Assembly: GCA_028821265.1 (NCBI GenBank)
Contig: JAPPGU010000008.1
Coordinates: 36,446-100,445, forward strand
Source of the DNA: a bacterium
GTDB taxonomy: Bacteria > Actinomycetota > Acidimicrobiia > Spongiisociales > Spongiisociaceae
Direction: 5' to 3'
Length of the DNA stretch: 64,000 bases
Below are positions 10,450 through 51,038 of the stretch, piece after piece. Made by a program: the position numbers and the translations under genes. The notes below the pieces were generated by a model. It did no database searches. It saw nothing but the letters and a program-made list of their open reading frames with translations, and had not been told where the DNA came from. Each line of letters opens with the position of its first letter. Within the stretch, counting starts at the first letter, position 1.

Positions 10450-10469
10450 GGCGTGGCTCGGGTGAAGGT

Positions 10470-11222: not shown

Positions 11223-11351
11223 TGGAATCGGTCAATCCTGCTTAATCGGTTGGAAGCGGTTTCTGGGAGACCCTTACGAACTCGGAAAGGCTACCCCGAT
11301 CAGGTCGGGCAGGCAAAGGTGGCGCGGACCGGCGATCTCCCGTCGGCCGGG

Positions 11352-12449: not shown

Positions 12450-12647
12450 GCTTGCCTCTTTGCCTTGCTCTGGTGGAGTCCTGCCCGGTAAGTCGGATGC
12501 GTCGAAGATAGTAGTTGCCTCCTGCGTAGCCAGGCGCCACGAGCGAGGGCTGGGGCGGTGACGGGACCGGACCGTTCTCAGCGGTGGCTTGCCCGTGTCC
12601 GGCTAGGGACAGCGCGGGGATAGACTCGGCGACCAGGGAGGTTTGAC

Positions 12648-13886
12648 GTGAGCAAAGAGAGAGAGCACGCCAAACGCGACGGCTCATGGGAGGAAGGCTC
12701 CACCGGGTTCGCGGAGCTGGGCGACCTGTTGCGGTCCGGCTTCAGTGACGGCCGCGACGGAGGGTCGGCGGCCGGTGCCGAACTCCGCTCGGCCTGGAGC
12801 GGCTTCGTGGATGCCGCCCGCGACCTGGGCCAGGCGCTGGCGGCGACCGCCAACGACCCCGAGGTCCGGGCGGCTATGAAGAGCGCCATGCAGACCGTGG
12901 TCGAGACGGTCGGGACCGCTGCTCGGGACGTCGCCGACACCGCCGCCGAACGCGTGAGGCAAACCGCAGAGAGACGCAAAGGGGAGGCCGGAGACGCGGA
13001 GGGTGGCACCGAGGGTCCGGCCCGGCCCCTTGTCACGTGTAGCTGGCTGGCCGACCATCTGGACGACCCCGGCGTGCGGATCGTGGATACCCGGTGGTTC
13101 CTGGGACAGCCCGGCGCCGGAAAGCTCCGGTACGAGGAGGATCACGTCCCCGGCGCCGTGTTCCTGGACCTCGACGATGACCTGGCGGCCTCCGAGGGTC
13201 CCGGCCGCCACCCTCTCCTATCCCCGGACGACCTGGCCGACCTGCTGGGCCGCCACGGGATCGGCAACGAGCACCACGTGGTGGTCTACGACCAAGGGCC
13301 CGGGGCCATAGCCGCCCGCCTCTGGTGGATGCTCCGCAGCGTCGGTCACGAACGCGTGAGCGTGCTCGACGGCGGGTACGGTCGCTGGTCTAGCCAGGAC
13401 CACCCGCTCACCACGGACCCGCCCGACGTCGTTCCCACTACCTACGAGACCGAGGAAGGCTCCACGCTCACCGTCGATCGCGACCAGCTGCTCGACCGCC
13501 TGGGAACCGCGCAGGTGATAGATGCCCGGGAACCGGAGCGCTACCGGGGCGAGACGGAGCCGATCGACAGCGTGGCCGGTCACATCCCTACCGCCCTATC
13601 GGCTCCCACCGCCGGAAACGTCGGCCCGGACGGCACCTTCAAGCCGGCTCACGTGCTGGCGGCCCGGTTCTTCGAGATGGGCCTGGAGAAGGATGAGCCG
13701 GTGATCAGCTACTGCGGAAGCGGGGTCACCGCCTGCCACAACCTCCTGGCCCTCCACATCGCCGGTTACCCGGAAGGCATCCTGTACCCCGGATCCTGGT
13801 CCGACTGGTCCGCCAGCGGGATGCCGGTAGCAGTGGGCCCCGACCCCGGCCCACCGCCGGAGCACCACCCAGGCGACGTCGCCTGA
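12648..13886 (+). CDS. Rhodanese-domain sulfurtransferase (thiosulfate/3-mercaptopyruvate sulfurtransferase-like) with ~125-aa N-terminal low-complexity extension
   Basis: Tandem rhodanese domains with active-site CGSGVTA. The upstream 125 aa (Ala/Glu/Arg-rich, high GC3) are in frame with no stop. Confidence 0.7.
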   Translation: MSKEREHAKRDGSWEEGSTGFAELGDLLRSGFSDGRDGGSAAGAELRSAWSGFVDAARDLGQALAATANDPEVRAAMKSAMQTVVETVGTAARDVADTAAERVRQTAERRKGEAGDAEGGTEGPARPLVTCSWLADHLDDPGVRIVDTRWFLGQPGAGKLRYEEDHVPGAVFLDLDDDLAASEGPGRHPLLSPDDLADLLGRHGIGNEHHVVVYDQGPGAIAARLWWMLRSVGHERVSVLDGGYGRWSSQDHPLTTDPPDVVPTTYETEEGSTLTVDRDQLLDRLGTAQVIDAREPERYRGETEPIDSVAGHIPTALSAPTAGNVGPDGTFKPAHVLAARFFEMGLEKDEPVISYCGSGVTACHNLLALHIAGYPEGILYPGSWSDWSASGMPVAVGPDPGPPPEHHPGDVA

Positions 13887-13952
13887 CGACTCACTTGCTG
13901 CCGGAGGCGGGGCGCGACCGCAGGTAGCAGCTATCGTGCGACGATCCGACCC

Positions 13953-14891
13953 TTGAACACATTCCGGTCATGGGTGGCCTCCCGCACGAGCCGCCCGAAG
14001 CGGATCAGACGGGTTGTCATACCGGTGGTGATCCTCGCGCTGATCTATGCGGCCGTGTCCTTCTACATCGCTGACAGCGCGCTCGACGCCGAAGCGAACC
14101 CACTCGACGAACACCCTCAGGACTTCGCCCTGCACTACGAGGAGGTCGAGTTCACCCCGCGCGGTTGGCCCACGACCGTCCTTCGAGGGTGGTGGTTACC
14201 GGCCCCTGACGCCCGCGCGACGGTGATCCGCGTGCATGGCATCGACAGCAACCGCAGCTCCATGCTGGCCATGGCCCCTACTCTGATCGAGAGCGGCTAC
14301 TCGGTGCTCGCCTTCGACCTGCGGGGCCACGGCGAGTCCGATCAGGCCCAGATGGGCGCCGGAGTCCACGAGCAAGACGACCTGCTGGGCGCGGTCGACT
14401 ACCTGGTCCGCGAACGCGGGGCGGAGGCCGGAGCGATCTTCCTGCATGGCAATTCCTACGGCGCGGCGATCGCCCTGATGTCAGGATGGCGCGAACCCGC
14501 CGTCGCCGGGGTCTTCGCCGACTCGTCCTTCGCCTCGCTGTCCGATCTGGTAGTCCAGGAGGTAGCGCGGCGCACCTCCGCGCCCTCCTGGCTGGCTTCC
14601 GTCCTGCGGCCGGGTGTGATCCTGATGGCTCGCCTCTCCAAGGGCATCGACATCGAGGGGGTGTACCCGGCGGGCGACGCCGCCAGATACTCCTACGCCA
14701 TCGGTCTTGCCCACTGCGAAATGGATGACCGCATCCCGATCAGCCACCTGGAACGCATCCGGACCGGGCTCCGGCACACGCCACGACTCACCGTCTACGA
14801 AGGCTGCGCCCACGGCGACGCCTGGGACGACTACCCAGGTCGCTACGAGGCAGCCCTTATCGCCTATCTCGACGAGCGGCTGGGACTCTGA
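13953..14891 (+). CDS. Alpha/beta hydrolase with N-terminal membrane anchor
   Basis: N-terminal TM; HGIDSNRS…LRGHGESD…LHGNSYGAAIA (GxSxG nucleophile elbow). Confidence 0.7.
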   Translation: MNTFRSWVASRTSRPKRIRRVVIPVVILALIYAAVSFYIADSALDAEANPLDEHPQDFALHYEEVEFTPRGWPTTVLRGWWLPAPDARATVIRVHGIDSNRSSMLAMAPTLIESGYSVLAFDLRGHGESDQAQMGAGVHEQDDLLGAVDYLVRERGAEAGAIFLHGNSYGAAIALMSGWREPAVAGVFADSSFASLSDLVVQEVARRTSAPSWLASVLRPGVILMARLSKGIDIEGVYPAGDAARYSYAIGLAHCEMDDRIPISHLERIRTGLRHTPRLTVYEGCAHGDAWDDYPGRYEAALIAYLDERLGL

Positions 14892-15020
14892 TCGGGCGAG
14901 CTCCCGAGGTGGATCGCGGTCACCGATTCCAAGGCTCGCTTTGACGGTCGCGTGTGCACGTCGGGCGGTACTGTCGAACCGACGTCTGCGAGCCGGACTC
15001 GGCATGTGAAGGAGCTGACC

Positions 15021-15980
15021 ATGGTGGACTTCGATGATCGTCTCGATGAAGCGCACAAGGCCGTTCTCGAGATGATTCCGGATGCCCTCCTGGATCTCAC
15101 GGACATACCCAAGGCGCGGCAAGCGCTCGACGGCTTCATCGCCGCCAGGGTCGCACAGGCTCCTGTGTTTCCCGGCGTTGAGGTCGGGGACCACTGGGCT
15201 CCTGGGGCGGACGGGGACCCGGATGTGATGGTTCGGGTCTACACACCGTCAGGTCTGGACGCTGGTGCACCGGCTCTCTACTGGATCCATGGCGGCGGAA
15301 TGGTGATGGGAAGTGTCACCAGGAACGACATCGAATGCAAGGGTTGGGCCACCGACATGCGGTGCGTGGTGGCGTCCGTGGAGTACCGCCTCGCCCCCGA
15401 GAATCCGCATCCCGCGCCGATCGAGGACTGCTTCGCCGGGCTGGCGTGGTTGGTGTCCAACGCGGAGAGCCTCGGAGTCGACGCCGATCGGATAGCGGTG
15501 GGTGGCGCCTCCGCAGGGGGTGGACTGGCGGCTGCCCTGGCCCTGGTTGCGAGGGATCGGGGTGTTGACATCATCTTCCAGCAGTTGATCTGCCCCATGC
15601 TGGACGACCGCAACATCACCCGTTCCAGTCATTGGGTCCAGCATCCCAAGGTATGGAACCGGGCGGCGAACATCGCCGGCTGGAGCGCCCTGCTGGGCAA
15701 GCCGGCCGGTTCCGATGACGTCTCTCCCTACGCTTCCCCCGCCCGAGCCGAGGACCTGTCCGGGCTGGCGCCGGCCTTCATCATCATCGGGGACCTGGAC
15801 CTGTTCGTGGACGAGTCCATCGAGTACGCCCAGCGGCTGGCCGCGGCCGGCGTGCCGACCGAGCTGCACGTACTCCCAGGGGCAGTCCACGGCACGCAGT
15901 TCTACCTCCCGACGGCGGAAATAAGCATGCGTTGGAAGGCCCTCGAGGCGGACGCACTGCGTGTGGCCCTCCACGGGTAG
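15021..15980 (+). CDS. Alpha/beta-hydrolase fold-3 esterase/lipase (HSL family)
   Basis: HGGG oxyanion motif (LYWIHGGGMVMGS) and GGASAGG nucleophile. Start ATG 15021 preceded by GAAGGAG RBS. Confidence 0.8.
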   Translation: MVDFDDRLDEAHKAVLEMIPDALLDLTDIPKARQALDGFIAARVAQAPVFPGVEVGDHWAPGADGDPDVMVRVYTPSGLDAGAPALYWIHGGGMVMGSVTRNDIECKGWATDMRCVVASVEYRLAPENPHPAPIEDCFAGLAWLVSNAESLGVDADRIAVGGASAGGGLAAALALVARDRGVDIIFQQLICPMLDDRNITRSSHWVQHPKVWNRAANIAGWSALLGKPAGSDDVSPYASPARAEDLSGLAPAFIIIGDLDLFVDESIEYAQRLAAAGVPTELHVLPGAVHGTQFYLPTAEISMRWKALEADALRVALHG

Positions 15981-25491: not shown

Positions 25492-25499
25492 GAGCCGAA

Positions 25500-25707
25500 C
25501 TCGCGAAAGACGGGTGCTCCGCACCGGGCCCTCCCCCGCCACCACCTGTCCTGTTCGGAGCGTGGTCGCCCATGCCCGGCCGGTGGCCGGGAGGTGGACC
25601 TTCGCTCCATGAGCTGTCATGTTCCCTCGGGCCGGCCGTTCCGATCGGTCTGTCTCATCGGCCGGTATTGGTGCTTGGCGATAGGCACCATATATCAGGG
25701 CTGTGAC
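25500..25707 (+). repeat. Copy B of the ~230-bp intergenic repeat family
   Basis: ~80% identity to copies A and C over the core; ends CTGTGAC. Causes the spurious N-terminal extension of ORF 25594. Confidence 0.6.
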
Positions 25708-25887
25708 ATTTTCTGCCCGTCAACCCATGGAGGAGGCCCGTTCGGCTCCTGCCGGGAGGATCGCCCGGTTGTCACCGGGCTGGGTCGTTTGGCCGGGCAG
25801 GGGAATATGCTGGGTCCTCGTATGGGTACGGGTCGCTTGGTTAGGAACGCACCGGCATGGTTGCCGGCACTTCGCACGAGCCGCGTC

Positions 25888-27252
25888 ATGTGGCTCGGAG
25901 TCCTGTTGGCGGCGTCGTTGCTGGTGGCGGGGTGTGGGGCCGCCGACGATGGGTCCGAAGTCCCGGCCGAGCCGCCCGCCACCACGGCCGATCCGGCCGC
26001 CGCAACAGAAGGTTCGAGCACCGTCCCCGGGTCCACGCAGGCGGCAACCACGACCGGCGCGGCGGATGCTCCCGCGCCCTCCTCGACCGCCGCGCCGGAT
26101 CCGGAGGGGGCGGCGCCGGCGGTGGCAGAGCCGGCGGTAGCAGACCCGGCACCGGAGGATCCGGAGGGCGGGCCCGACCCTAAGCAGGGCCTGGATCCGG
26201 TGGTGGCCTATGCCACCGAGTCGTGGCCCACCGACTGGGCAAACCGCACCGTCGACCTGTCGGAGCTGCTGCTCGGGATCGGCATGATCGATCCGCGGGA
26301 TGCCATCCCGCCCATCGATGACCCGATCTTCGAGTCCCTCGACCAGGCCGCCGAGTGGCTCGACAGCAGGGCGCCGGGAATGCTGGTCTCCATCGGCGGC
26401 GACTCCCGCTTCTACGCGCTCAGCATCCTCCATCGCCACGAGATCGTGAACGACCGGATCGGGGGCATCCCCGTCGCGGTCACCTACTGCCCGCTGTGCA
26501 ACACGGCGCTGGTCTTCGACAGCCGGGTGGGCGGCGAGGAGCTCCGCTTCGGGGTGTCGGGACTCCTCCGCAACTCCGACCTGGTCATGTGGGACGACGG
26601 GACCGTCTCGCTGTGGCAGCAGGTCACCGGCGAAGCGATCGTGGGCGCCGCGGCGGGAACGGTCCTCACCCACATCCCGAGCGCCATCGTGTCGTTCGGG
26701 GAGTTCGCCGCCGCCTATCCGGACGGACGATCCCTTTCCCGGGACAACGGTGGCGGCATACCGTACGGCTTCAATCCCTACGAGGGGTACTCCAGCCGGG
26801 CGGCGCCCTATCCCTTCTTCACCGGCGAGGTCGATCCCCGCTACGGGGCCCTGGAACGGGTGGTGGGGGTGACCATCGGCGGCGCCGCCACTGCCTACCC
26901 GTTCCCCCTGCTCGCCGAGGTCGGGGCGGTCAACGACTCCGTCGGAGGGGTTCCGATCACGGTGTTCTGGGGCGGGGACACCGCCGACGCCCTCGACAGC
27001 CGGGTGGTGCGCGAGGGGCGGGCGATAGGGACGGGGATCGCCTACCTGCGCCAGGTGGACGGGCGCCCGCTGACGTTCTTCAAGGAAGGCGAGGTGTTCC
27101 GGGACCAGGAGACCTCGTCGACCTGGACCCTGCTGGGCGAGGCGGTCAGCGGCCCGCTGGCCGGGTCCAGGCTGGAGATCGCCATCCATCGCAACGAGTT
27201 CTGGTTCGCGTGGGGCGCCTTCTTCCCGGAGGGGGACGTCTACGAAGGGTGA
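25888..27252 (+). CDS. DUF3179-family lipoprotein
   Basis: Start MWLGVLLAASLLVAGC (lipobox); Ala/Pro/Thr-rich linker; conserved body …VAVTYCPLCNTALVFD…. The ORF-track N-terminus (25594-25887) is translation of repeat copy B. Confidence 0.65.
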   Translation: MWLGVLLAASLLVAGCGAADDGSEVPAEPPATTADPAAATEGSSTVPGSTQAATTTGAADAPAPSSTAAPDPEGAAPAVAEPAVADPAPEDPEGGPDPKQGLDPVVAYATESWPTDWANRTVDLSELLLGIGMIDPRDAIPPIDDPIFESLDQAAEWLDSRAPGMLVSIGGDSRFYALSILHRHEIVNDRIGGIPVAVTYCPLCNTALVFDSRVGGEELRFGVSGLLRNSDLVMWDDGTVSLWQQVTGEAIVGAAAGTVLTHIPSAIVSFGEFAAAYPDGRSLSRDNGGGIPYGFNPYEGYSSRAAPYPFFTGEVDPRYGALERVVGVTIGGAATAYPFPLLAEVGAVNDSVGGVPITVFWGGDTADALDSRVVREGRAIGTGIAYLRQVDGRPLTFFKEGEVFRDQETSSTWTLLGEAVSGPLAGSRLEIAIHRNEFWFAWGAFFPEGDVYEG

Positions 27253-28583: not shown

Positions 28584-28897
28584 CGAGACTACTCAACTCC
28601 TGCCTGCCGCGTGTCCAGCGCGTGAAGCCGACCCCCGCCGGTCCCTCAACACCGAACACGTTCATGCTACGCGCACCGGCGAGGTAACGAGGACGCTGGT
28701 CGGTCGGGCTCTCGCGGCAAACGATGCCCGTACGCCGACATACTCCACAACGCCTTTCCGGCCGCGTTTCTTCCGCCTTTTCGATTAGCGATGCCTTTTC
28801 AACGCCCGGAGCCGCCCCGGACGGCAAGCACACGCACCTACGTAACATGGTGCTGACGACCCCAGGGGGATTTCATGCGCCGACACCGTGACCTGCC

Positions 28898-30943
28898 ATG
28901 GCGCTGCTGAGAGACCTGCCGCTCGAGGGGTTGTCCCCTTACCTGATCCAGCACCGGGACAACCCGGTCGACTGGCACCCATGGGGAGAGGAGGCCTTCG
29001 AGGCCGCCAAGACCGCGGACCGCCCGATCCTGCTCTCGGTCGGATACTCGACCTGCCATTGGTGCCATGTCATGGAGCGGGAGTCCTTCCACGACCATGC
29101 AACGGCCGATTTCATGAACCGGCATTTCGTATCGGTCAAGGTTGACCGCGAGGAACGACCCGACGTGGACTCTATCTACATGGACGCGGTCCACACCATG
29201 ACCGGCCGGGGCGGCTGGCCCATGACCGTGTTCCTGACGCCCGGCGGCCGCCCGTTCTTCGCCGGGACGTACTTCCCCGATGTGGACCGCCACGGCATGC
29301 CCAGCTTCCGCCGCGTGCTGGAGGCGATCGAGCACGCCTGGCGGAACAGACGGAAAGACGTGCGGGAACAGGCGGACCAGCTGACCGGGGCGATCGGGCT
29401 CACCCTCCCACCCGCCGAGGACCTGCCCGGCCGAGCCCGGGTGAGCGCCGCCTACGAGACCCTCTCCCGGCAGTTCGACTTGCAACACGGCGGCTTCGGC
29501 GGCGCCCCCAAGTTCCCCCAGGCGCCGATCCTGGAGTTCCTGGCCAGGATAAGCGGCCTCGCCACGGCGACCAAGGCCAAGCCGATGCTCACCACCACAC
29601 TGACCCGCATGGCGCGAGGCGGCATCCGCGACCACCTGGGCGGCGGGTTCGCCCGCTACTCCGTGGATCGGATCTGGCTGGTCCCCCACTTCGAGAAGAT
29701 GCTCTACGACAACGCCGATCTGGCCCGCCTGTACGTCCGGGCGTGGCAGATCACCGCCAACCCGTACTACCAGGAGGTGGCGGTCGACACCCTGGGGTAC
29801 ATGTTGCGGGATCTCGCCCATCCCGGGGGCGGCTTCTTCGCGGCGGAGGACGCCGACTCCGAGGGGGTGGAGGGCAAGTTCTACGTGTTCGATCACGAAG
29901 AGTTCCACGAGGTGGTCGGACCGGACGACGGGCCCGTGGCCGCCACCTACTTCGGGGTGTCGAAGGGCGGCAACTTCGAGGGCGACAACATCCTCTACGA
30001 GTCAGCCACCACCTCGGAGGTGGCGGAAAGGTTCGGCACCGGGGTCGAGGAGGTGGAGAGCGCGATCGGGCGGGCCAAGGAGAGGCTCCTGGCCCGCCGG
30101 GGCACCAGGATCCGGCCCGGCCGGGATCACAAGATCATCACCGTGTGGAACGGTTTCGCCCTGCGGGCGCTCGCGGTGGCGGGCGCCGCGCTGGGGACGG
30201 AGGACTACCTGGAGGCGGCCCGGGCGAACGCCCGGTTCGTCCTCGGCGAGATGCGCCGCCGCGACGGGCGCCTGGCGCGGGTCTGGAGCAACGGCCTGGC
30301 GCCGATCCCCGGGTTCCTGGAAGACCACGCGGCGTACTCCCTCGGGCTTCTGGAGCTCTACCAGGCCACCGGCGAGGTCGAGTGGTTCGTGGCCGCCCGG
30401 GAGCTGGTCGACCTGCTGGAGGAGCACTTCGGCGGCCCGACCGGGGTGGTGTTCGCCAGCGCCGCCGACGCCTCCAACCTGGTGGTAAGGCCGTCCGACC
30501 AGCAGGACAACCCGAGCGCCTCCGGCGCATCGCTGGCGGCGGAGTGCTACCTACTGCTCGGTCATCTCACCGGGGACCACAGGTATCACGAGCGCTTCGA
30601 GCAGATCGTCCGGGCGGGGGACCGGCTCCTCGAGGCGGCCCCTTCCGCGGCCGGTCACCTGCTGGCGGCCCTGGCCGCGTCCCAGATGGGCATACGGGAG
30701 GTGGCCGTGACCGGGCCTCGCGCCCTGGAGTGGGCCGGGCGGCTCGCCGGAACCTACCGGCCCGATCTGGTGCTGGCCCCGTCCCCGGGTCCTGCCGATG
30801 AGGTTCCCGTGGTGGCCGGGCGCTACCGGGAGGGCGAGACCCTCGGCTACGTCTGCGAGCGGGGCGCCTGCCGGATGCCGGTCGGATCCTACGCCGAGCT
30901 GGAGGTCCAGGTAGCCGGGAAGGGCTACGATCGACCCTCGTGA
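28898..30943 (+). CDS. Thioredoxin-domain protein, DUF255/YyaL family (N-terminal Trx-like plus six-hairpin glycosidase-like domain)
   Basis: …[23 protein letters not shown]… CxxC Trx-like motif; 681 aa. Confidence 0.8.
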
Positions 30944-32722: not shown

Positions 32723-33328
32723 TTAGAGGGCGTCCGACAGGGCGCGCCAGAGGTCGGTCACGGCGGACCCCAAGCCTCCCAGCGCCCAGCGCAGGACCAG
32801 GGCCACGACGGCGATCCCGGCCGCGGCGAAGATCATCCGGAGCCGGTAGGTCATCGTCTCCTCGCTGTCCTCCAGGTAGGAGGGATTGGCGACCGGCGCC
32901 CGCGCCATGGCGCGCCGTCGCCCGAGGGATTGCCTGGCTCTCGAGATCAGTTTCGACCCGGGCGCCTCCGAGAACTCAAGAGGGGCGCTCTCCGGGTGTG
33001 GGAGATCCGGCGGCTCCTCCAGCTCGACGAACTCGATGTCGTACAGGGTGTCCTCGTCCAGATCGGTGTCCGGCTCGGGCGGCGGCAGCAGCATCCTGTG
33101 CTCGTCGACCCGCCGCAAGGCTTCCTCCAGGAGAGGCATCGGCAGCCTCAGCGCGGCGGACACGTCCACCAACTCGTCGGCGTCAGGTACGGCGGAGCCC
33201 TGTTCCCAGCCGACCACCACTTCGATCGGCCGCCCGGTTCGGGTGGCGATGTCCACCACGGAGACGTCCATCTCTTCACGGCGCTTCGCGAACAGGCGGG
33301 CGAACGCCAGCCCTTCGTCCGGCGACAT
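32723..33328 (-). CDS. HTH (XRE-like) domain membrane protein, RodZ-like architecture
   Basis: Start MSPDEGLAFARLFAKRREEMDVSVVDIATRTGRPIEVVVGWE (HTH), acidic linker, C-terminal TM helix. ATG overlaps the stop of the upstream gene by 1 nt. Confidence 0.5.
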   Translation of the reverse strand: MSPDEGLAFARLFAKRREEMDVSVVDIATRTGRPIEVVVGWEQGSAVPDADELVDVSAALRLPMPLLEEALRRVDEHRMLLPPPEPDTDLDEDTLYDIEFVELEEPPDLPHPESAPLEFSEAPGSKLISRARQSLGRRRAMARAPVANPSYLEDSEETMTYRLRMIFAAAGIAVVALVLRWALGGLGSAVTDLWRALSDAL

Positions 33329-33732
33329 CAGTGGGTCAGTATCTCGGGGAGGCTGTCGGGTTCCGGCCCGGCGGTGACCCGCAGCAGACCGAGGTCCTTG
33401 ACGTTCCAGCACAGGGTCATGCCACCCGGCACCAGGAGCCGCAGGATCGACTCACCGTCGGCGCGGCCGGCGTGAACCTCACCGAGCGCCAGCACCTCGG
33501 TCAGGGGGATCGAGGCGGAATAGGCGCCGTCGGCGCTGAGGGCCGTGACGTGGGTGGCGCCCGTCCGGGGCCGGGCCGCCTCGATCAGCGGGCGCATGGC
33601 CACCACCACGCCCGCCGCGCCCTCCTCCGGAGTTCCCATGTCGTGGAGGGTGTCCAGGTCGTAGCCCCGGGGACGGTCGACCAAGCCGGTCACCCGCAGC
33701 AGCGGTAGCTCGTTGGATGTTCCACCAGACAC
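33328..33732 (-). CDS. Small sulfite-oxidase-fold (Oxidored_molyb-like) domain protein, no obvious Mo-ligating Cys
   Basis: …LLRVTGLVDRPRGYDLDTL…AYSASIPLTEVL…ILRLLVPGGMTLCWNVKDLGLLRV… resembles the Moco-domain core of the YedY/sulfite-oxidase family, but only 134 aa. Confidence 0.4.
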   Translation of the reverse strand: MSGGTSNELPLLRVTGLVDRPRGYDLDTLHDMGTPEEGAAGVVVAMRPLIEAARPRTGATHVTALSADGAYSASIPLTEVLALGEVHAGRADGESILRLLVPGGMTLCWNVKDLGLLRVTAGPEPDSLPEILTH

Positions 33733-33787
33733 GGTCCAACGGTAGCGTTAACGGGATGCCAAGCCGCGCCTTGGACCCCGCAGGTCA

Positions 33788-33882
33788 TGGCGGAGGCGGA
33801 CGGGAATCGAACCCGCCGGGGCACTCTCGTACCCCCACTGGTTTTGAAGACCAGGGAGCCCACCAGGCGCTCGTTCGCCTCC
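33788..33882 (-). tRNA. selC: tRNA-Sec (selenocysteine tRNA), anticodon UCA
   Basis: Minus-strand sequence GGAGGCGAACGAGCGCCTGGTGGGCTCCCTGGTCTTCAAAACCAGTGGGGGTACGAGAGTGCCCCGGCGGGTTCGATTCCCGTCCGCCTCCGCCA. 95 nt; anticodon loop CU-UCA-AA; long variable arm (GGGGG…CCCC). T-arm GCGGG-TTCGATT-CCCGT, then an 8-nt acceptor 3' strand, G73 and CCA, giving the 8/5 acceptor/T architecture diagnostic of bacterial tRNA-Sec. -10-like TATCCT 7 nt upstream. Confidence 0.8.
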
Positions 33883-36383: not shown

Positions 36384-36474
36384 TCCCCTAGCGTACGGCA
36401 ACGCCGAGTGTCGGCCGGATCGGGCGAATGCGGAATACCTCGGTAGATTCGGGCCTGAATGACCGAGGGGACAC

Positions 36475-39127: not shown

Positions 39128-41677
39128 ATGACCGAGCCCTCCTACCGGTTGCCCCGCCAGGTAGTCCCCAGCCACTACCGATTGCGGATGGAACCCGATC
39201 TCGATACCGCCACCTTCACCGGGTCCGAGGTGGTGACCTTCGACGTGGTCGAGGCTACCGACCGGGTGGTGCTTAACGCCGCCGAGCTGCAGATCGATGA
39301 GGCTCGATTCGTCCGTGGCGACGCCAGCGCCCAAGCCGAGGTCGAGTATGACGAGGAACTGCAGCGAGCCACCCTCCGGGTCCCTAAGCCCCTGTCGACC
39401 GGCCGATGGGAGCTCCACTGCCGCTTCACCGGGATCCTCAACGATCAGCTCCGGGGCTTCTACCGGTCCACGTTCGACGACGAGGACGGGAACTGCCAGG
39501 TCATAGCCACAACCCAGTTCGAGGCCACCGACGCCCGCCGCGCCTTCCCGTGCTGGGACGAGCCGGACTTCAAGGCCTCCTTCGGGGTCACCCTGGTGGT
39601 GCCGGAGGACCTGATGGCGGTCTCGAACGGCGCCGAGGTCGAGCGGGCGCCCCTCGGCGACGGCCGGGTGGCGATCACCTTCGCCGACACCATCGTGATG
39701 TCTACGTATCTGGTGGCCTTCGTGGTGGGTCCCTTCGAGGCAACCGCGCTGATCGATGTGAACGGGGTGCCGCTCCGTATCGTGGCGCCCAGGGGCAAGA
39801 TGCGCCTGACCGGGTACGCGCTGGAGTGCAGCCGGTTCTGCCTCGACTACCTGGCCACCTACTACGGCATCCCCTACCCGGGCGACAAGGTGGACATGGT
39901 GGCCATCCCCGACTTCGCCTTCGGCGCCATGGAGAACTTGGGATGCATCACCTACCGGGAATCGGTGCTGCTGGTCGACGAGGAGATCGCCACCTCGGCG
40001 GAGAAGATGCGGATCCTGGACGTGATCGGGCACGAGCTGGCCCACATGTGGTTCGGGGACCTGGTCACGATGAAGTGGTGGAACGGCATCTGGCTGAACG
40101 AGGCCTTCGCCACCTTCATGGAGATGAAGGCCGTCGATGCCTTCCGTCCCGAGTGGAAGCGCTGGCTGGAGTTCGCGGCGGCCGAGCGTCCCTGGGCGTT
40201 CAAGACCGACGAGCTGGCCGGAACGAGGCCGGTGGAGTTCGAGGTGCGTTCTCCCGCCCAGGCGGAGGGGATGTTCGACGGCATCACCTACGGCAAGGGC
40301 TCGGCCGTGCTCCGGATGATGGAGCAGTACGTGGGCGAGGAGCCGTTCCGGTCCGGGGTCGAGAGCTACCTGCGGCGGCACGCCTACGGCAACACCGAGA
40401 CGAGGGACTTGTGGGAGAGCCTGGACGAGTCCTCGGGCCGCCCGGTGGGCGAGATCATGGACACCTGGATACTCCAGGGCGGCTACCCGCAACTGAGCGT
40501 CGGTATCGCGGACGGCGGCGTCTCCCTGGAGCAGAGCCGGTTCCTGCTGATCCCCGATCCTGCCGACACCAGTTCCTGGAAGGTCCCCGTCCGGCTACGA
40601 GGCATGGCGGGCGGGGACCCGTTCGAGACAAGCGTGCTGGTGGAGGGGTCGCGGATCACGATCCCGCTGGGCGGACCGGTCGACTGGGTGATCGCCAACG
40701 CGGGCGGGCACGGGTTCTTCCGGTCGCGATACGAGGAGTCCCTGCTGGAGGCTCTCGTGGACCGGCTCCACCTGCTGGACCCGGTGGAGCGGTTCGTGCT
40801 GGTGGACGACGCCTGGACCTTCGTCGAGGCAGGACGATCCGGCGTGTCAGGGTTCGTGGGCCTGGCCTCCGCCTTCAGGGACGAGCAGGAGCAGGCGGTC
40901 TGGGGGGCCTTACTGGGCGCCATCGGCGCCATCGGGCACCATCTGGTCACCGACGGCACCCGGCCCCGCTACGAACGGTGGGTGGCCGGCCTCCTCGCCC
41001 CCCTGGCCGATCGGCTGGGATGGGCGCCCGCCGGTGAGGAATCCGATCTGGTGCGCCGCCTCCGGGGGCGGGTGATCGACTCGCTGGGCCGGCTGGCCAA
41101 CCTCCCCCAGGTCGTCGAGCAGGCCCGGAGCGTCCACGAGCAGCGGGTGGCCGATCCCACGTCGGTGGATCCCGAGGTGGCCGGGGCGGCCATCTCGGTC
41201 TGCGCCGCGCACGGGGACGCCGACACCTACGAGAGGTTCCTCGACCGGTACCGGACCGTCCGCAATCCCCAGGAGTCCCTCAAGTACCTGCGGGCGGTGG
41301 CTTCGTTCGACGCCGAGGATGCCGTGGATCGCACCTTCGAGCTCATCGCCGACCGCAGCGTCCGCAACCAGGACACCAGCTGGGTGCTGGCCCGGATGCT
41401 GGCCAACCGGGTGACCGGTCCCTATGCCTGGTCGAAGTTCAAGGATCGCTGGGACGGCATCCTCGAGATCGCCCCGCCGATGACCCAGGCCCGAATGGCG
41501 GACGGCTTCCCCGCTCTCTCCCATCCCGAGGTGGCGACGGACGTGGCGGCCTTCCTGGCCGACAACCCTCTCCCCCATGCCGCCAAGGCCGTGGAGCAGA
41601 AGCTGGAGCGCCTCTCGGCCCTGGTCAAGATGAGGGAGCGCGAGACGGGAGCGATGGCCGGGGCTCTCCCCGAGTAG
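39128..41677 (+). CDS. pepN: Aminopeptidase N (M1 family zinc metallopeptidase)
   Basis: GAMEN (FGAMENLGC) and HEXXH-(18)-E (IGHELAHMWFGDLVTMKWWNGIWLNEAF) motifs; 849 aa. Confidence 0.9.
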   Translation: MTEPSYRLPRQVVPSHYRLRMEPDLDTATFTGSEVVTFDVVEATDRVVLNAAELQIDEARFVRGDASAQAEVEYDEELQRATLRVPKPLSTGRWELHCRFTGILNDQLRGFYRSTFDDEDGNCQVIATTQFEATDARRAFPCWDEPDFKASFGVTLVVPEDLMAVSNGAEVERAPLGDGRVAITFADTIVMSTYLVAFVVGPFEATALIDVNGVPLRIVAPRGKMRLTGYALECSRFCLDYLATYYGIPYPGDKVDMVAIPDFAFGAMENLGCITYRESVLLVDEEIATSAEKMRILDVIGHELAHMWFGDLVTMKWWNGIWLNEAFATFMEMKAVDAFRPEWKRWLEFAAAERPWAFKTDELAGTRPVEFEVRSPAQAEGMFDGITYGKGSAVLRMMEQYVGEEPFRSGVESYLRRHAYGNTETRDLWESLDESSGRPVGEIMDTWILQGGYPQLSVGIADGGVSLEQSRFLLIPDPADTSSWKVPVRLRGMAGGDPFETSVLVEGSRITIPLGGPVDWVIANAGGHGFFRSRYEESLLEALVDRLHLLDPVERFVLVDDAWTFVEAGRSGVSGFVGLASAFRDEQEQAVWGALLGAIGAIGHHLVTDGTRPRYERWVAGLLAPLADRLGWAPAGEESDLVRRLRGRVIDSLGRLANLPQVVEQARSVHEQRVADPTSVDPEVAGAAISVCAAHGDADTYERFLDRYRTVRNPQESLKYLRAVASFDAEDAVDRTFELIADRSVRNQDTSWVLARMLANRVTGPYAWSKFKDRWDGILEIAPPMTQARMADGFPALSHPEVATDVAAFLADNPLPHAAKAVEQKLERLSALVKMRERETGAMAGALPE

Positions 41678-41876
41678 GTGGTCTGTCTGCGGGTTGGCGG
41701 TGCGGTATGGCGTCGGCAGCGGGGTTCCTCGCAAGGCCCGCTGACGAAGGCGTGGCCGCAGCGGCACGTTGAGGAAGCGGAACGCAGCGACGGGGCGCCG
41801 ATGACCGCCAGAGCACGCCAAGCTTCCCGCCGGCAGACCACTAACGTCAGGATCGACGCAGGAGAGGAAGCAGGCC

Positions 41877-42512
41877 ATGGACATTTCATTCTGGGTGGAC
41901 CCGCTCTGACCGTGGTGCTGGGTGACGGCCCGGTGGGTTGTCGACGAGGTTACGCCGGAGCGGGACGTACGGGTTGAGTGGGAACCCATCAGCCTGATGT
42001 TCAAGAACGATCCGGAACCGGGTTCGGACCGGCACCGGACCACCTCCCGGACCCACGGCATGCTGCGGGTGATGGAGTCGGTGAGGACGGAGTTGGGCAA
42101 CGAGGGCGTGTTCCAGGCCTACTGGGCGTTCGCCACCCGCATCCACCACGACCGGAACCTGTTCGACTTCGATGTCGCCCAGGTGTTGGCGGCCATCGGC
42201 ATCGACTCCGGCCACGCCCGGGCCTTCGGGGACGGCTCGTGGGACGGGGAGATCCGCCGCCGCATGGATACCGGGCTCGCTCTGGTCGGCGATGACGTGG
42301 GCACCCCGATCATCGCCATGGAGGATGCCCGGGGCGACCGGGTGGGGATGTTCGGGCCGGTGATCACCCGGGTACCCGGCCGTGACGACTCCTTGCGGCT
42401 CTGGGACGGTCTGGTGGCGGTCACCACCGTGCCGGGCTTCTGGGAGCTGAAGCGAACCCGCACCGAGGACCCCGAGTTCGGCGAGCGCCCTGCCGGGGCT
42501 ACACCCGTCTAG
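41877..42512 (+). CDS. DsbA/FrnE-like thioredoxin-fold oxidoreductase, candidate selenoprotein (in-frame TGA 41907-41909 replacing the first Cys of the CPWC motif: U-P-W-C)
   Basis: ATG 41877 with GGAGAGGAAG RBS. Reads MDISFWVDPL-[TGA]-PWCWVTARWVVDEV… in frame with downstream ORF 41922-42512. FWxDxxCPWC is the DsbA/FrnE family active-site signature. Confidence 0.7.
41923..41943 (+). promoter_or_regulatory. Candidate bacterial SECIS element: hairpin UGACGGCCC-GGU-GGGUUGUCG
   Basis: Starts 14 nt downstream of the UGA. 8-9 bp stem including G·U pairs; apical loop containing GGU ~23-25 nt from the UGA, matching the spacing and loop-G/U requirement of SelB-binding SECIS elements. Confidence 0.4.
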
Positions 42513-42530: not shown

Positions 42531-43325
42531 ATGAGCTACCCCATCAGGATCGCCGTGCAGATCCGTCCCCAGCACGGCGACTACCGGGACATCAGGGCGG
42601 CCGCCGTCCAGGCCGAGGAGATGGGCGTGGACGCGGTGTTCAACTGGGACCACTTCTACCCGCTCTACGGCGATCCGGACGGCAAGCACTTCGAGTGCTG
42701 GACCATGCTCGCCTCGTTCGCCGAGGTGACCGAGCGGGTGGAGATCGGCGCCCTGGTCACCTGCTACTCGTACCGCAACGCCCACCTGCTGGCCGACATG
42801 GCGCGCACGGTGGACCACATCAGCGACGGTCGCCTCATCCTGGGCCTCGGTGCCGGATGGTTCGAAAAGGACTACAGCGAGTACGAGTACCCGTACGGCA
42901 CCGGCGGCACCCGGCTCCGGGACTTCGAAGCCGGTCTGTACCGCATCACCAAGCGCCTACGGCTGCTCAACCCTCCCCCGGTGCGGGACATCCCCATGCT
43001 GATCGGCGGCATGGGCGAGAAGCAGACCCTACGGCTCGCAGGCCGCTACGCCGACATCTGGCACGGGTTCGGCGGTCCGGAGACGCTCACCCGCAAGAGC
43101 CGGATACTGGACGGTTGGTGCCGCGAGGCGGGACGTGACCCGGCCGAGGTGGAGCGCGCCATCGAGGTCGAGGACCCGACGGACATCGACCGCGCCGACG
43201 GGCTTCTGGCGGCCGGGGCCACCCTGATAACGCTGTCGATCAACGGACCCCGATACGACCTGTCGGCCGTGCCGGACTGGCTCAGCTTGCGGGACGGCCG
43301 GAACGCCGCCCGACAAGGGGGTTGA
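42531..43325 (+). CDS. Luciferase-like monooxygenase family, F420-dependent oxidoreductase class (LLM class F420)
   Basis: …AEEMGVDAVFNWDHFYPLYGD…LILGLGAGWFEKDY… TIM-barrel LLM signature. 19 nt after the selenoprotein gene stop. Confidence 0.7.
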   Translation: MSYPIRIAVQIRPQHGDYRDIRAAAVQAEEMGVDAVFNWDHFYPLYGDPDGKHFECWTMLASFAEVTERVEIGALVTCYSYRNAHLLADMARTVDHISDGRLILGLGAGWFEKDYSEYEYPYGTGGTRLRDFEAGLYRITKRLRLLNPPPVRDIPMLIGGMGEKQTLRLAGRYADIWHGFGGPETLTRKSRILDGWCREAGRDPAEVERAIEVEDPTDIDRADGLLAAGATLITLSINGPRYDLSAVPDWLSLRDGRNAARQGG

Positions 43326-47371: not shown

Positions 47372-48556
47372 ATGAAGATCACCGGCATCCGTGTGACGCA
47401 TGTGAACGTCCCCTTTGATGCACCTTTCTGGTGGACCGCCGGTCTCTATCCGGGTGCGTCGAAATCGATCGTCGAGGTGGAAACCGACGAGGGCATAGTC
47501 GGCCTTGGGGAGGCGCCGTGGTGGCATTTCGGCGAGGTGATCGAGCGAGAGATCGCGCCCGCTCTGATCGGTGCCGACCCGTTCGATCTCGCCGACTGCG
47601 AGGCGCGGTGCGTGCCTGCCTATCAGATCACCGCGAACACCGGCGAGACTGCCTCGATGGTCGCTTTCGGCGCCGTCGAATTGGCACTCTGGGACATCCA
47701 GGGCAAAGCCCTCGACATGCCCCTCTACAGGCTGCTGGGCGGAGCCGTGCGCAAGGAGATCCCTTTCACCGAATACTTCTCGTTCCGGCCTGAGCACAAG
47801 GGCGCGGGCGGCGAGATGTCGGCCGAGGCCATCGTCGAGTACTGCCTGAGGATGTGCGAGGAACACGGCTCGACCTACTTCGAGGGCAAGCTGATTCTGG
47901 GCGACCCCGAGCTGGAGATACGGACTGTCGCCATGTTGCGCGAGGCCCTCGGCGCGGACGCCATGATCCGCCTCGACTCGAACATGCAATGGTCGCTGAC
48001 CACCGCCCGCTGGGTGTTGCGCGAGGTCGAGGCGTTCAACATCCGCAACTACGAGGACCCGGTCGCAACGTTTGAGGAGATGGCAGAGTTGCGCCGCCAT
48101 ACGATGATCCCCTTCTCCACCCATGTGCCGGACCTGCGCCGCGCCGTCGCGCTGGGGGCGCCCGATGCCTTTGTCTGCAACTTCGCGGCACTCGGCGGCA
48201 TCAGGGCGACGCTCAGATTCGTGGCCGCTTGCGAGGCGATGGGCAAGGACTTCTGGTGCTACTCGAATGACCTCGGCATCATGACCGCGGCCTATCTACA
48301 TCTGACGGCTGCGACGCAGTGGATCACCGAGCCGTCGCAGTCGTTGTTCCGCTGGCAGATCGGGGACGTGGTCGAAGGCGGACCCTTCCGCCAGACCGAC
48401 AACACCATCCGCGTTCCCGAAGGACCCGGCCTCGGCGTCGAGCTCGACCCCGAGTCGATGGCGCGCTGGCACCAGCATTTCGTGGATAACGGGCCGATGA
48501 GCCATTTCCATCATCCGGAGAGCCCGGACCATTACACGCGTTTGCCGCTCAACTGA
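47372..48556 (+). CDS. Mandelate racemase/muconate lactonizing enzyme family (enolase superfamily)
   Basis: MKITGIRVTHVNVPF…IVEVETDEGIVGLGEAP… capping domain plus TIM barrel with metal ligands. Confidence 0.8.
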   Translation: MKITGIRVTHVNVPFDAPFWWTAGLYPGASKSIVEVETDEGIVGLGEAPWWHFGEVIEREIAPALIGADPFDLADCEARCVPAYQITANTGETASMVAFGAVELALWDIQGKALDMPLYRLLGGAVRKEIPFTEYFSFRPEHKGAGGEMSAEAIVEYCLRMCEEHGSTYFEGKLILGDPELEIRTVAMLREALGADAMIRLDSNMQWSLTTARWVLREVEAFNIRNYEDPVATFEEMAELRRHTMIPFSTHVPDLRRAVALGAPDAFVCNFAALGGIRATLRFVAACEAMGKDFWCYSNDLGIMTAAYLHLTAATQWITEPSQSLFRWQIGDVVEGGPFRQTDNTIRVPEGPGLGVELDPESMARWHQHFVDNGPMSHFHHPESPDHYTRLPLN

Positions 48557-48590
48557 TGCGCTCCATCGTGAAGCCGGGACTGGAGGGATC

Positions 48591-51038
48591 GTGAAGTCGC
48601 AGTACCGGGTGGTGGTGATCGGGGGCGGCGTGGTCGGCGCCAGCGTGCTGTATCACTTGACGAAGCTGGGTTGGAGCGACGTGGCGATCGTGGAGCGAGA
48701 GGTGTTGACAGCCGGGTCGAGTTGGCACGCCGCCGGCGCTGTGCATGCTCTCAACGCCGATCCGAATATCGCGGCTCTGCAGGCGTACACGATCGATCTG
48801 CTTTCCGAGATCGGGGAGGAGTCGGGCCTCGACGTGGGGATGCACATGACGGGTGGCATCTCGGTGGCTTCGGCGCCGGAGCGGTGGGAGTGGTTGCAGG
48901 CGGCGTATCGAGTGTTCCAGACGATGGGTATCGAGGACGTGCGGCTGATCGGCCCCGATGAGATCGAGCAGTGGTGCCCGATCATGAACGTCTCTGATGT
49001 GCTCGGGGGTCTGTGGGCGGACCGTGAGGGGTATATCGATCCGTCGGCGGTGGTCCATGCCTACGCCAAGGCTGCCCGGTCGCGGGGTGGCGACGTGATC
49101 GAGCACAACCGGGTGCTCGAACTACGCCCACGCCGGGACGGGTCGTGGGAGGTGGTGACCGAGGGTGGAACCATCGTCGCGGAGCACGTCGTGAACGCCG
49201 CCGGGCTGTGGGCCAAGCAGGTGGGGCGAATGGCGGCGGTGGAGCTTCCGGTCTCGCCGATGCAGCATCACTACCTGGTCACCGAGACGATCCCCGAGAT
49301 CGCGGCGCTCGACTTCGAGGTGCCGATCATGATCGACCTCGAGGGCTACACCTACATGCGTCAGGAGCTCCAGGGGGTGTTGGTCGGGGTCTATGAGCGC
49401 GATTGCCGGCATTGGAACATGGACGGTGCGCCGTGGGATTACGGCGTGGAGCTGATCCCACCGGAGGTGGATCGGATCTCGAGCGAGCTGTCGTTTGCGA
49501 TGTCCCGCTACCCGGTCCTAGAGCACACCGGTATCAGCCGCTGGGTGAACGGGGCGTTCACGTTCTCGCCGGACGGCAACCCCCTGGTGGGTCCGGTGCC
49601 CGGGTTGCGCAACTACTGGTCGGCGTGTGCGGTGATGGCCGGTTTCCTCCAGGGCGGCGGCGTGGGCAAGTCGCTGGCGGAGTGGATGATCGAAGGGGAA
49701 CCGGAGGAGGACATCTTCGCGATGGACGTGGCCCGTTTCGGGTCCTACGCCGAGAACCGTGAGTACATCCGCCAGATGACCGCGCAGTTCTACTCGCGCC
49801 GGTTCGTCATCACCTACCCCAACGAGGAGTTGTGGGCGGGCCGGCCGTTGCGCATGGCCCCGGCGTACGATGCGATGACCGAGGCCGGGGCGCAGTGGGG
49901 GTGCTCGTACGGTCTGGAGATCCCGATCTACTTCGCCCCCAAGGGCTTAGAAGAGGTGCCTACCCTGCGCCGCTCCAACGCGTTCGACATCGTCGGCGAA
50001 GAGTGCCGCCGGGTGCGTTCCACCGTCGGGATCCTCGACATCGCCGGGTTCTCCCGCTACGAGGTCACCGGTCCCGGCGCCGCGGCATGGCTCGATCGGC
50101 TCTTCGCCGGCGCGTTACCCGCACCCGGGCGGATCAAGCTCGCCCCGATGCTGGGCCACGACGGCCGGCTCAAAGGAGACCTGACGTTGTTCAACTGGGG
50201 GGACGGCACGTGGTGGATCGTGGGCTCGTACTACCTGCGGGCCTGGCACATGCGCTGGTTCAACGACCACCTCGGCGACGGGGTGGCGGTGCGTGACATC
50301 TCGGATGCCGTCGTCGGCTTCTCGCTCTCCGGGCCGGGTTCTCGCGACCTGTTGCAACGGGTCGCGTCGGATGACGTCTCGGCGGAAGGCATGCGCTTCA
50401 TGGGGTGTCGTGAGCTAGACGTCGGCATGATCCGGGCCCGGGTGGGCCGGATATCGGTCACCGGAGAGCTCGGGTACGAGATCCACTGCCCGGCCGCCGA
50501 GCACATCGCCCTGCGCCGCCTCCTTCTGGAGGCCGCCGACGGTCTCGATGCGATCGAGTACGGCTACAACGCTCTGATGTCGCTCCGGATCGAGAAGAGC
50601 TTCGGCGTCTGGTCGACCGAGTTCCGCCAGGAGTACACCCCGGCCATGACCGGGTTGGACCGATGGATCGACTGGTCCAAGGACGGCTTCATCGGCGCCG
50701 GGGCGGCCCGCAAGGAGCGGGACGACGACAGCGCCGCCAGGAGGCTGGTCACCCTCGAAGTGGACGCCACCGACGCGGACGCCACCGGGTACGAGCCGGT
50801 GTGGAACGGTGACCGGAGGGTCGGCTACATCACCTCGGGCGACTACGGCCACACCATCGGCAAGAGCCTCGCCATGGCCCTCATCGACCGGGAGCACACC
50901 GCGGAAGGTACCGAACTGGCAACCCATATCGTCGGGGTCGAACGCCCGGCCCGGGTGATCGCCCCCTCACCCTACGACCCGGACGGCCAGGCGATGCGAG
51001 CCGGTTCAGCACCCATGAATCGCACCCCGGATGGGTAA
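48591..51038 (+). CDS. Dimethylglycine/sarcosine dehydrogenase-like flavoprotein (FAD oxidoreductase fused to GcvT-type aminomethyltransferase/folate-binding domain)
   Basis: N-terminal VVVIGGGVVGASVLYHL (FAD); C-terminal GcvT-like domain. 815 aa, as in DMGDH/SarDH. Confidence 0.85.
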   Translation: MKSQYRVVVIGGGVVGASVLYHLTKLGWSDVAIVEREVLTAGSSWHAAGAVHALNADPNIAALQAYTIDLLSEIGEESGLDVGMHMTGGISVASAPERWEWLQAAYRVFQTMGIEDVRLIGPDEIEQWCPIMNVSDVLGGLWADREGYIDPSAVVHAYAKAARSRGGDVIEHNRVLELRPRRDGSWEVVTEGGTIVAEHVVNAAGLWAKQVGRMAAVELPVSPMQHHYLVTETIPEIAALDFEVPIMIDLEGYTYMRQELQGVLVGVYERDCRHWNMDGAPWDYGVELIPPEVDRISSELSFAMSRYPVLEHTGISRWVNGAFTFSPDGNPLVGPVPGLRNYWSACAVMAGFLQGGGVGKSLAEWMIEGEPEEDIFAMDVARFGSYAENREYIRQMTAQFYSRRFVITYPNEELWAGRPLRMAPAYDAMTEAGAQWGCSYGLEIPIYFAPKGLEEVPTLRRSNAFDIVGEECRRVRSTVGILDIAGFSRYEVTGPGAAAWLDRLFAGALPAPGRIKLAPMLGHDGRLKGDLTLFNWGDGTWWIVGSYYLRAWHMRWFNDHLGDGVAVRDISDAVVGFSLSGPGSRDLLQRVASDDVSAEGMRFMGCRELDVGMIRARVGRISVTGELGYEIHCPAAEHIALRRLLLEAADGLDAIEYGYNALMSLRIEKSFGVWSTEFRQEYTPAMTGLDRWIDWSKDGFIGAGAARKERDDDSAARRLVTLEVDATDADATGYEPVWNGDRRVGYITSGDYGHTIGKSLAMALIDREHTAEGTELATHIVGVERPARVIAPSPYDPDGQAMRAGSAPMNRTPDG

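Follow-up and report, generated by a model that had tools for sequence, protein, structure and literature searches.

Why should a bacterial gene carry a stop codon at the very position where its relatives have the nucleophilic cysteine of their active site? The question is raised by a gene in a 64-kb stretch of DNA from an acidimicrobiial contig (GenBank JAPPGU010000008.1, forward-strand positions 36,446 to 100,445; hereafter the window, to which unqualified coordinates refer; GC content 63-71%). Read from the ATG at 41877-41879, the frame runs MDISFWVDPL-(TGA)-PWCWVTARW… without a frameshift to the terminator TAG at 42510-42512, and its translation gives an active site U-P-W-C, a CPWC-type motif with selenocysteine (Sec, U) for the first Cys. 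In a mechanical listing, the open reading frame (ORF) has 196 amino acids and begins at GTG 41922. The gene at 41877-42512 is very probably a genuine selenoprotein gene, and we hold with high confidence the explanation that best fits the whole: a cytoplasmic selenoprotein of 211 residues, of the Rv2466c/mycoredoxin-2 family, in which the UGA is decoded as Sec. The coordinates and sequence features listed by a first-pass annotation of this DNA (ribosome-binding site, ATG, TGA, frame, hairpin and tRNA-Sec gene) are all correct against the window sequence.

How widespread is the TGA? Two sets of loci were compared: 80 species-representative loci from genomes, all belonging to the Acidimicrobiia/Acidimicrobiales, and 80 loci from metagenomes, obtained by a scan seeded with an alignment of Cys forms. 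The TGA is found at exactly the same codon in 78 of the 80 genome loci, the remaining two having TGT or TGC, and in 77 it stands within FW[VI]DP[ILV]-U-PWC. Despite the Cys-form query, 72 of the 80 metagenome loci also have TGA, the others again having TGT or TGC. The two sets combined hold 150 loci of the Sec form, in which there are 130 unique 60-mers, and the genomes span 43-73% GC. Carriers include Ca. Spongiisocius, metagenome-assembled genomes (MAGs) labelled Ca. Microthrix, single-cell genomes, closed chromosomes from long reads and a cultured isolate, Salinilacustrithrix flava EGI L10123; one sponge MAG matches the window with 100% identity. The TGA form is conserved in at least 78 species of Acidimicrobiia. 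(In the 78th of these genome loci, L023 (MAG JBFGJH010000074), at 5107-5118, the TGA is part of U-K-W-C in place of U-P-W-C, with the hairpin downstream unchanged; loss of the motif proline is unusual in this fold.)

That the TGA arose from faulty sequencing or assembly, or is the scar of a nonsense-mutated pseudogene, is scarcely credible: a lone in-frame stop near the 5' end does resemble a nonsense mutation, and gene callers treat it as one, but the same TGA recurs in 150 loci from independent projects and technologies (long-read chromosomes, single cells and the isolate among them), the 130 unique 60-mers show that these are not copies of a single contaminant, the GC content at third codon positions (GC3) is 0.90 and resembles that of the neighbouring genes, and purifying selection acts on either side down to about 56% protein identity. 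The relatives thus bear out the earlier expectation of a conserved TGA plus hairpin, and there are no decaying pseudogenes among them.

Is the sequence upstream of the TGA translated at all? Among 142 unique sequences, the codons from -10 to -1 relative to the TGA contain no stop, and their W, D and P are invariant; third-position entropy is 0.7-1.9 bits, far exceeding that of positions 1 and 2. A start codon (ATG, GTG or TTG) stands precisely at codon -10 in 126 of the 142, and the sequence 5' of this point is unconserved. (A GGAG/GAGG/AGGA-type motif occurs at the equivalent stretch in 62 of 142 related loci, so the ribosome-binding site is supportive and unconserved.) Downstream, the P-W-C-W codons between the TGA and the annotated GTG show synonymous variation only (CCG/CCA/CCC/CCT; TGC/TGT). 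Since the signature of coding is present at both flanks, a single frame under purifying selection extends across the TGA, and this selection rules out that the gene is a pseudogene, that the TGA is a sequencing error and that translation starts at the annotated internal GTG. Reassignment of the genetic code is excluded as well, because TGA is the ordinary stop of 23 of the 41 supported genes in the window, where it is the commonest stop codon. A scan of the window for other in-frame TGAs between high-GC3 segments gave no further redox-motif context.

Public annotation has followed the shorter reading. A protein search returned dozens of clusters at 62-91% identity, all starting 'M/V-TARWVV' at the GTG after C-W, as well as distant homologues of 204-225 amino acids that are full length and have CPWC or CPFC. 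Short starts alongside full-length Cys homologues point to gene callers halting at a conserved in-frame stop. (In protein clusters P0001-P0120, the public calls start at the GTG after C-W or later and comprise 171-199 amino acids; the mis-started entries include the NCBI 'disulfide bond formation protein DsbA', from which the active site is missing.) Might the annotation nevertheless be right, with a 196-residue product lacking CxxC and the stretch from ATG to TGA serving as a 10-codon leader or remaining untranslated? GTG 41922 is a possible start, and the many database entries beginning there would agree. Such a product, however, would miss the whole active site of the family, and neither the invariance of P-W-C-W at the protein level nor the conservation of FW[VI]DP, which is part of the family fold and in frame with a conserved start codon, would be accounted for; a leader peptide would not reproduce the active-site sequence of a protein family. 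This alternative is highly improbable.

To which family does the protein belong? In profile searches, in which U was written as C, the best description is Pfam PF22234 (Rv2466c-like, mycothiol-dependent nitroreductase), matched over the entire profile (1-180 of 180) with 131.9 bits against a cut-off of 27 (3.9e-38); PF01323 (DSBA) gives a weak match, 32 bits against 25.6, confined to the first 72 residues. The Rv2466c structures 4ZIL, 4NXI and 5XUR in the Protein Data Bank match end to end (residues 4-205, E = 2.8e-37 to 4e-34), and full-length identity to Mycobacterium tuberculosis Rv2466c (mycoredoxin-2) is 37%, with FWVDPL-U-PWCWVTARW aligned over FWFDPL-C-PWCWITSRW. A DsbA-like thioredoxin fold may be inferred. 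No NCBIfam model reaches its cut-off on the selenoprotein, so none rescues the Sec form. The homologues bear Cys at the UGA position, in CPWC or CPFC, and the Cys forms in the databases use TGT or TGC. Aligned with Cys homologues and with the solved Rv2466c structures, the TGA falls on the first Cys of CPWC, which bears out the original proposal that the UGA occupies the place of the nucleophilic Cys of CxxC. This Sec/Cys-exchangeable nucleophile of a UxxC redox motif is a classic selenoprotein position (PMC1088965). The original label 'DsbA/FrnE-like' survives in its first half, the DsbA/thioredoxin fold; the FrnE label does not, given the PF22234 membership and the roughly 16 residues shared with published FrnE-type Sec proteins.

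Recoding of UGA in bacteria calls for a selenocysteine insertion sequence (SECIS), and the first-pass annotation had pointed to a SECIS-like hairpin in the coding sequence. Its arms GACGGCCC (41924-41931) and GGGUUGUC (41935-41942) form an 8-bp stem around the loop GGU (41932-41934), and the single-sequence minimum free energy (MFE) structure of 60 nt contains it. At 69% GC, single-sequence folding is uninformative, and the case for the hairpin therefore rests on comparative evidence. In an alignment of 78 sequences, 96.1% of the cells of the stem are paired, a figure that drops to 17-61% once the partner is shifted by 1-3 columns; over 70-130 unique sequences the paired fraction is 96-97%. 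None of 500 shuffles matched the observed percentage paired, double changes or pair types, although this statistic, like the Fisher test given below, overstates independence, since the sequences are phylogenetically related. Pair 4 joins the third position of the Thr codon to that of the first Val codon, both synonymous, and appears in 130 unique sequences as G-C (118), U-A (4), A-U (3), C-G (3) and G-U (1), with one C·C mismatch. Entropy at four-fold sites is 0.33-0.55 bits within the stem versus 1.6-1.9 bits in the codons directly downstream. The hairpin has a mean energy of -12.5 kcal/mol and a base-pair probability of 0.66-0.87, and 60 of 70 MFE folds contain it. Its apical loop, GUU in 86 sequences and GGU in 43, always carries G or U; where Arg is encoded by AGG, the closing pair opens to leave a loop of 5 nt. 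In low-GC genomes the changes in the hairpin are mostly C-to-U and preserve G·U pairs. Of 8 Cys forms that share the peptide, 3 have lost pair 4, compared with 1 of 130 Sec forms (Fisher p = 5e-4, in related sequences). Bacterial SECIS elements have a small apical loop containing G (PMC1088965), and the hairpin fits the published description, being directly 3' of the UGA, with G in a small loop, and conserved in orthologues. By these comparative data the hairpin is selected and non-random: with compensatory changes, five pair types and low synonymous variation, the SECIS-like element held up when its conservation was examined.

The second component is the tRNA. The tRNA-Sec gene was said to lie about 8 kb upstream, and the distance is indeed 8.0 kb; the match to Rfam RF01852 is full length, with 77 bits against a gathering score of 47 (E = 4.5e-14), and ARAGORN agrees. 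A tRNA-Sec gene is also found at the equivalent upstream position in two relatives (L002 and L009). In the window it is HflX and a small unidentified ORF, and no sel gene, that adjoin the tRNA-Sec gene. (Beside this gene are two overlapping high-GC3 ORFs in different frames, 33328-33747 (-) and 32723-33451 (-), one with a sub-threshold Oxidored_molyb match of 23 bits and the other without a family; they may represent a small protein with a molybdopterin domain, a gene broken by a frameshift or a spurious call.) Genes selA, selB, selC and selD are reported throughout the Actinomarinales, another order of the Acidimicrobiia (bioRxiv 10.64898/2026.04.03.716425, preprint).

A number of observations weigh against Sec insertion and against the hairpin as its signal. 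No selA, selB or selD was found with Pfam among the approximately 48 GC3-supported ORFs of the window, and a SelD-site pattern had no match in 1.8 Mb of flanking sequence. The hairpin of the window does not stand out by folding, the 60-nt segment having z = -0.66, with 56 of 200 shuffles folding equally well, and its covarying pair 4 is a weaker G·U. The peptide VTARWVV forces 4 of the 8 stem pairs, and the hairpin persists in 5 of the 8 Cys forms whose peptide is identical, so that the control separates the two groups only partially; part of the structure is therefore a coding by-product or a fossil (in the Cys forms, either fossil or pre-adapted). No Rfam SECIS family matches the window, tRNA-Sec being the sole Rfam match of the search, and the surplus of hairpin codons ending in G or C that low-GC genomes show does not reach significance (0.58 versus 0.49, p = 0.28). 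The relatedness of the sequences, mentioned above, belongs on this side as well. Finally, the RNAalifold consensus differs from the hairpin, having two helices that include the UGA. This structure was rejected as uninformative: it is built on invariant columns, with 500 of 500 shuffles equalling it and no compensatory pair, in 66 of 70 sequences its energy exceeds that of the hairpin, its base-pair probability is 0.02, it figures in 1 of 70 MFE folds, and it breaks exactly where columns 21 and 33 covary together. It is regarded as an artefact of the tool's penalty on C-to-A and U·U cells.

Could the UGA then be read through as something other than Sec, whether Trp, Cys or Gly by a near-cognate tRNA, or Cys carried on tRNA-Sec? 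The failure to find selA, selB and selD in the window, or a SelD site in the flanks, would be in keeping with this, as the incorporation of selenium is a prediction, and the TGT or TGC of some lineages shows that Cys is functionally acceptable. It is a very unlikely reading all the same, since the window has a dedicated tRNA-Sec gene and a selected stem-loop where a bacterial SECIS is expected, general read-through would be costly with TGA as the normal stop of most window genes, and the codon stands at the exchangeable nucleophile of a UxxC motif (PMC1088965).

With UGA decoded as Sec, how would the protein be made and what would it do? What we observe directly is that the UGA is conserved, that the sequence on either side of it is translated, that the hairpin is under selection, that a tRNA-Sec gene is present and that the protein belongs to the family; from these we infer the incorporation of selenium, the binding of SelB, the reductant and the substrate. 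Decoding of UGA 41907-41909 would use the bacterial Sec pathway, in which Sec-tRNA(Sec), transcribed from the gene 8 kb upstream, would be delivered by SelB, itself presumably tethered to the hairpin at 41924-41942, embedded in the V-T-A-R-W-V-V codons. Because the active site is at residue 11, with the conserved start 10 codons upstream, there is no room for a signal peptide, and the protein would be a cytoplasmic enzyme of the reductase type; a periplasmic DsbA oxidase was rejected for the same lack of space. By analogy with Rv2466c, Sec11 may attack a mixed disulfide, on a protein that is S-mycothiolated or otherwise S-thiolated, or some different substrate that is oxidised or electrophilic. 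A selenenylsulfide would result, to be resolved either by Cys14 or with a low-molecular-weight thiol, for which mycothiol, recycled by its own reductase, is the likeliest candidate. At the functional level, a Sec-dependent reductase of the mycoredoxin-2 type, with Sec11 as the nucleophile, is the assignment that we somewhat favour on the strength of this analogy. A DsbA-like reductase dependent on mycothiol (mycoredoxin-2) and also a nitroreductase, Rv2466c receives electrons via the mycothiol/Mtr pathway (PMC6178380); its CPWC motif is essential, and destabilising mutations abolish its activity (PMC9841431). Mycothiol S-conjugate amidase is near-universal in the Acidimicrobiia (PMC5962788).

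Table 1. Features of the selenoprotein locus and related elements in the 64-kb window.
Feature	Position	Strand	Remarks and basis
Predicted selenoprotein coding sequence	41877..42512	+	211 codons + stop, U at codon 11; translation, PF22234, Rv2466c homology
Shine-Dalgarno-like GGAGAGGAAG	41861..41870	+	6 nt 5' of start codon; read from sequence
In-frame UGA, predicted Sec codon	41907..41909	+	Aligned with first (nucleophilic) Cys of CPWC
SECIS-type hairpin	41924..41942	+	Inside coding sequence, starts 14 nt past UGA; comparative data
tRNA-Sec (selC), anticodon UCA	33792..33880	-	ARAGORN; Rfam RF01852
pepN-like M1 aminopeptidase, upstream neighbour	39128..41677	+	Pfam Peptidase_M1, M1_N, ERAP1_C
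F420-dependent LLM-class oxidoreductase, downstream neighbour	42531..43325	+	TIGR03856; Pfam Bac_luciferase

The immediate neighbours (Table 1) suggest another source of electrons. The gene of the luciferase-like monooxygenase (LLM) class begins 18 nt past the selenoprotein gene, at ATG 42531, and its product scores 380 bits with TIGR03856 (cut-off 243.7); in the sponge-associated clade the two genes are probably co-transcribed. Could the selenoprotein form a dedicated redox pair with this enzyme, recycled by F420H2 and not by mycothiol? In addition to the probable co-transcription, the proposal can draw on the LLM orthologue immediately downstream in 17 of 75 loci, on a distant LLM paralogue that some six marine low-GC loci have about 2.2 kb downstream, and on a gene of the FrhB/FdhB type (an F420-binding family) directly upstream of two Cys forms (L161, 3861-4565; L162, 256-1452). 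(These two come from unrelated metagenomes and constitute a second, independent F420-flavoured neighbourhood.) On the other hand, the order pepN, Sec gene, F420-LLM gene is found in the sponge-associated (Spongiisociaceae-like) clade only, to which all 21 of the 75 loci with pepN immediately upstream on the same strand also belong, and clustering of the neighbouring ORFs revealed no partner conserved across the whole Sec clade. We know of no F420-dependent recycling of a DsbA-fold protein. The characterised homologue, moreover, uses mycothiol and Mtr (PMC6178380). The pairing is thus unlikely, and of the suggested Sec/F420 pair, the adjacency of an F420-type gene stands, whereas the redox partnership, with the gene order limited to 17 of 75 loci, is weak. 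The mycothiol-dependent reductase remains the preferred reading. As for pepN, we take it to be the neighbour (Rv2467) of Rv2466c in M. tuberculosis, too.

Elsewhere in the window are other genes of redox or one-carbon character. A DUF3179 gene at 25492-27252 (+; PF11376, 304 bits) has no in-frame TGA in a redox context; Sec-containing members of this family, with UxxC/T, are listed in a 2026 review (PMC13188914), and the window copy is apparently not one of them. The 683-residue Thioredox_DsbH/DUF255 thioredoxin-domain protein encoded at 28892-30943 (+; 247 bits) likewise has no in-frame TGA that could be seen, and it matches the TsoB selenoprotein model below threshold (29 bits versus 805). 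At 12624-15980 (+), three consecutive genes, for a double rhodanese, an alpha/beta hydrolase and an Abhydrolase_3 esterase, run head to tail in one frame with single stop codons between them; the TGA at 13884 in this run has no redox-motif context, and the arrangement is probably a coincidence. A four-gene cluster of the corrinoid-dependent methyltransferase type at 7392-12602 (-) encodes an MtrH-like pterin-binding protein, a reductive activase of the RACo type that has a 2Fe-2S domain, a protein that binds B12 and a methyltransferase resembling URO-D/MtaA, and at 48501-51038 (+) there is a fusion of DAO, FAO_M and GcvT resembling dimethylglycine/sarcosine dehydrogenase. Fusion and cluster together suggest metabolism of methylated amines.

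How did the Sec form arise? In a neighbour-joining (NJ) tree of 217 distinct sequences rooted on Rv2466c, a Cys group of the CPFC type is basal, and all 146 Sec forms fall in one large clade with 31 Cys forms scattered within it. Crude and indicative as such a tree is, it suggests a single early gain of Sec followed by repeated switches from Sec to Cys. Just two of the 80 genome loci have Cys (TGT, TGC). Both of them, L043 and L062, on the Ca. Spongiisociaceae chromosomes OZ251578.1 and OZ241841.1, have the same pepN synteny as the Sec clade, a peptide that now reads (I/V)THRWVA and one extra gene before the LLM gene; they look like reversions from Sec to Cys. A broader scenario may be offered tentatively, and is rather doubtful as a whole: a Sec-containing mycoredoxin-2 that was ancestral and dominant across most Acidimicrobiales, with repeated reversions, and was one of the main selenoproteins sustaining the Sec trait, its SECIS having co-evolved with the helix peptide and its sponge clade being possibly wired to F420. 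If this were true, the Sec form would be among the main selenoproteins sustaining Sec decoding in an abundant marine, sponge and wastewater lineage, the SECIS would constrain W-V-T-A-R-W-V-V, so that one stretch of RNA is under dual selection as SelB site and as catalytic helix, and the clade of sponge symbionts may link selenium, mycothiol-type and F420 redox chemistry.

The practical consequence is more immediate. In at least 150 loci, including the genome of the cultured isolate, public calls begin at an internal GTG and lose the active site. A selenium requirement is indicated for abundant sponge-symbiotic and planktonic Acidimicrobiia. The Sec and Cys forms also make up a natural series of a biochemically and structurally characterised M. 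tuberculosis prodrug activator, Mrx2, with which the benefit of Sec in mycothiol-type redox chemistry could be measured. Conceptually, none of this will surprise a selenoprotein specialist, as thioredoxin-fold UxxC selenoproteins with an intragenic SECIS are well known; what is added to their catalogue is a Sec-containing Rv2466c/mycoredoxin-2 subfamily. This subfamily, its spread in the Acidimicrobiia and its systematic mis-annotation appear to be undescribed. A search of the accessible literature found no paper joining Rv2466c with selenocysteine, the matches to mycoredoxin plus selenoprotein being incidental, and automated surveys (Peng 2016, deep-Sep) may have counted some members as 'DsbA-like'.

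How does the protein compare with these known selenoproteins? The 'DsbA-like' UxxC group has been known since the Sargasso Sea study, which provided nine sequences (Zhang et al. 2005, PMC1088965); it was later found in Anaeromyxobacter, Desulfovibrio and Desulfotomaculum, was counted in 41 organisms (Peng et al. 2016, PMC5029168) and is listed in a 2026 review as 'form 1, PF01323' (PMC13188914). Its members (form 1, UxxC; COG2761/FrnE; PF01323; Zhang et al. 2005, 2006 and subsequent surveys) share with the window protein the DsbA-superfamily fold, the Sec-first motif U-P-W-C and a UGA placed 10-17 codons from the start, followed by a SECIS with G in a small apical loop (PMC1088965). The likeness ends there, however. 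BLASTP aligns no more than 16-17 residues about the motif, the Rv2466c-family signatures TARWV and ELKRTR are absent from all nine published Sargasso sequences, and where the FrnE type has the loop G[IV]xxVPT, the window protein has DVGTPII. Identity with the 2005 proteins was rejected by direct comparison with the sequences in the supplement; judged by sequence, the protein is of the same superfamily and chemistry and of a different subfamily.

Parallels are also found among actinobacterial Cys proteins. In Corynebacterium glutamicum, NCgl2478 is described as a mycothiol-dependent thiol-disulfide reductase annotated as DsbA (PMC8280269). This member of the 'DsbA-mycoredoxin' cluster, which can be likened to our proteins by motif and description only, has the CPFC motif of the basal Cys-form relatives, that is, Cys with CPFC where the window protein has Sec with UPWC. 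Rv2466c itself is of the same length class and has the same FWxDPLxPWCW context and the C-terminal motif ELKRTRTE; its D16, W23 and T25 have D, W and T equivalents in the window protein, and it too is cytoplasmic, without a signal peptide. The difference lies in the nucleophile, which in the window gene is Sec, encoded by UGA and accompanied by an intragenic SECIS hairpin, instead of Cys, and in the hosts, which are Mycobacteriales for Rv2466c and Acidimicrobiia for the Sec form.

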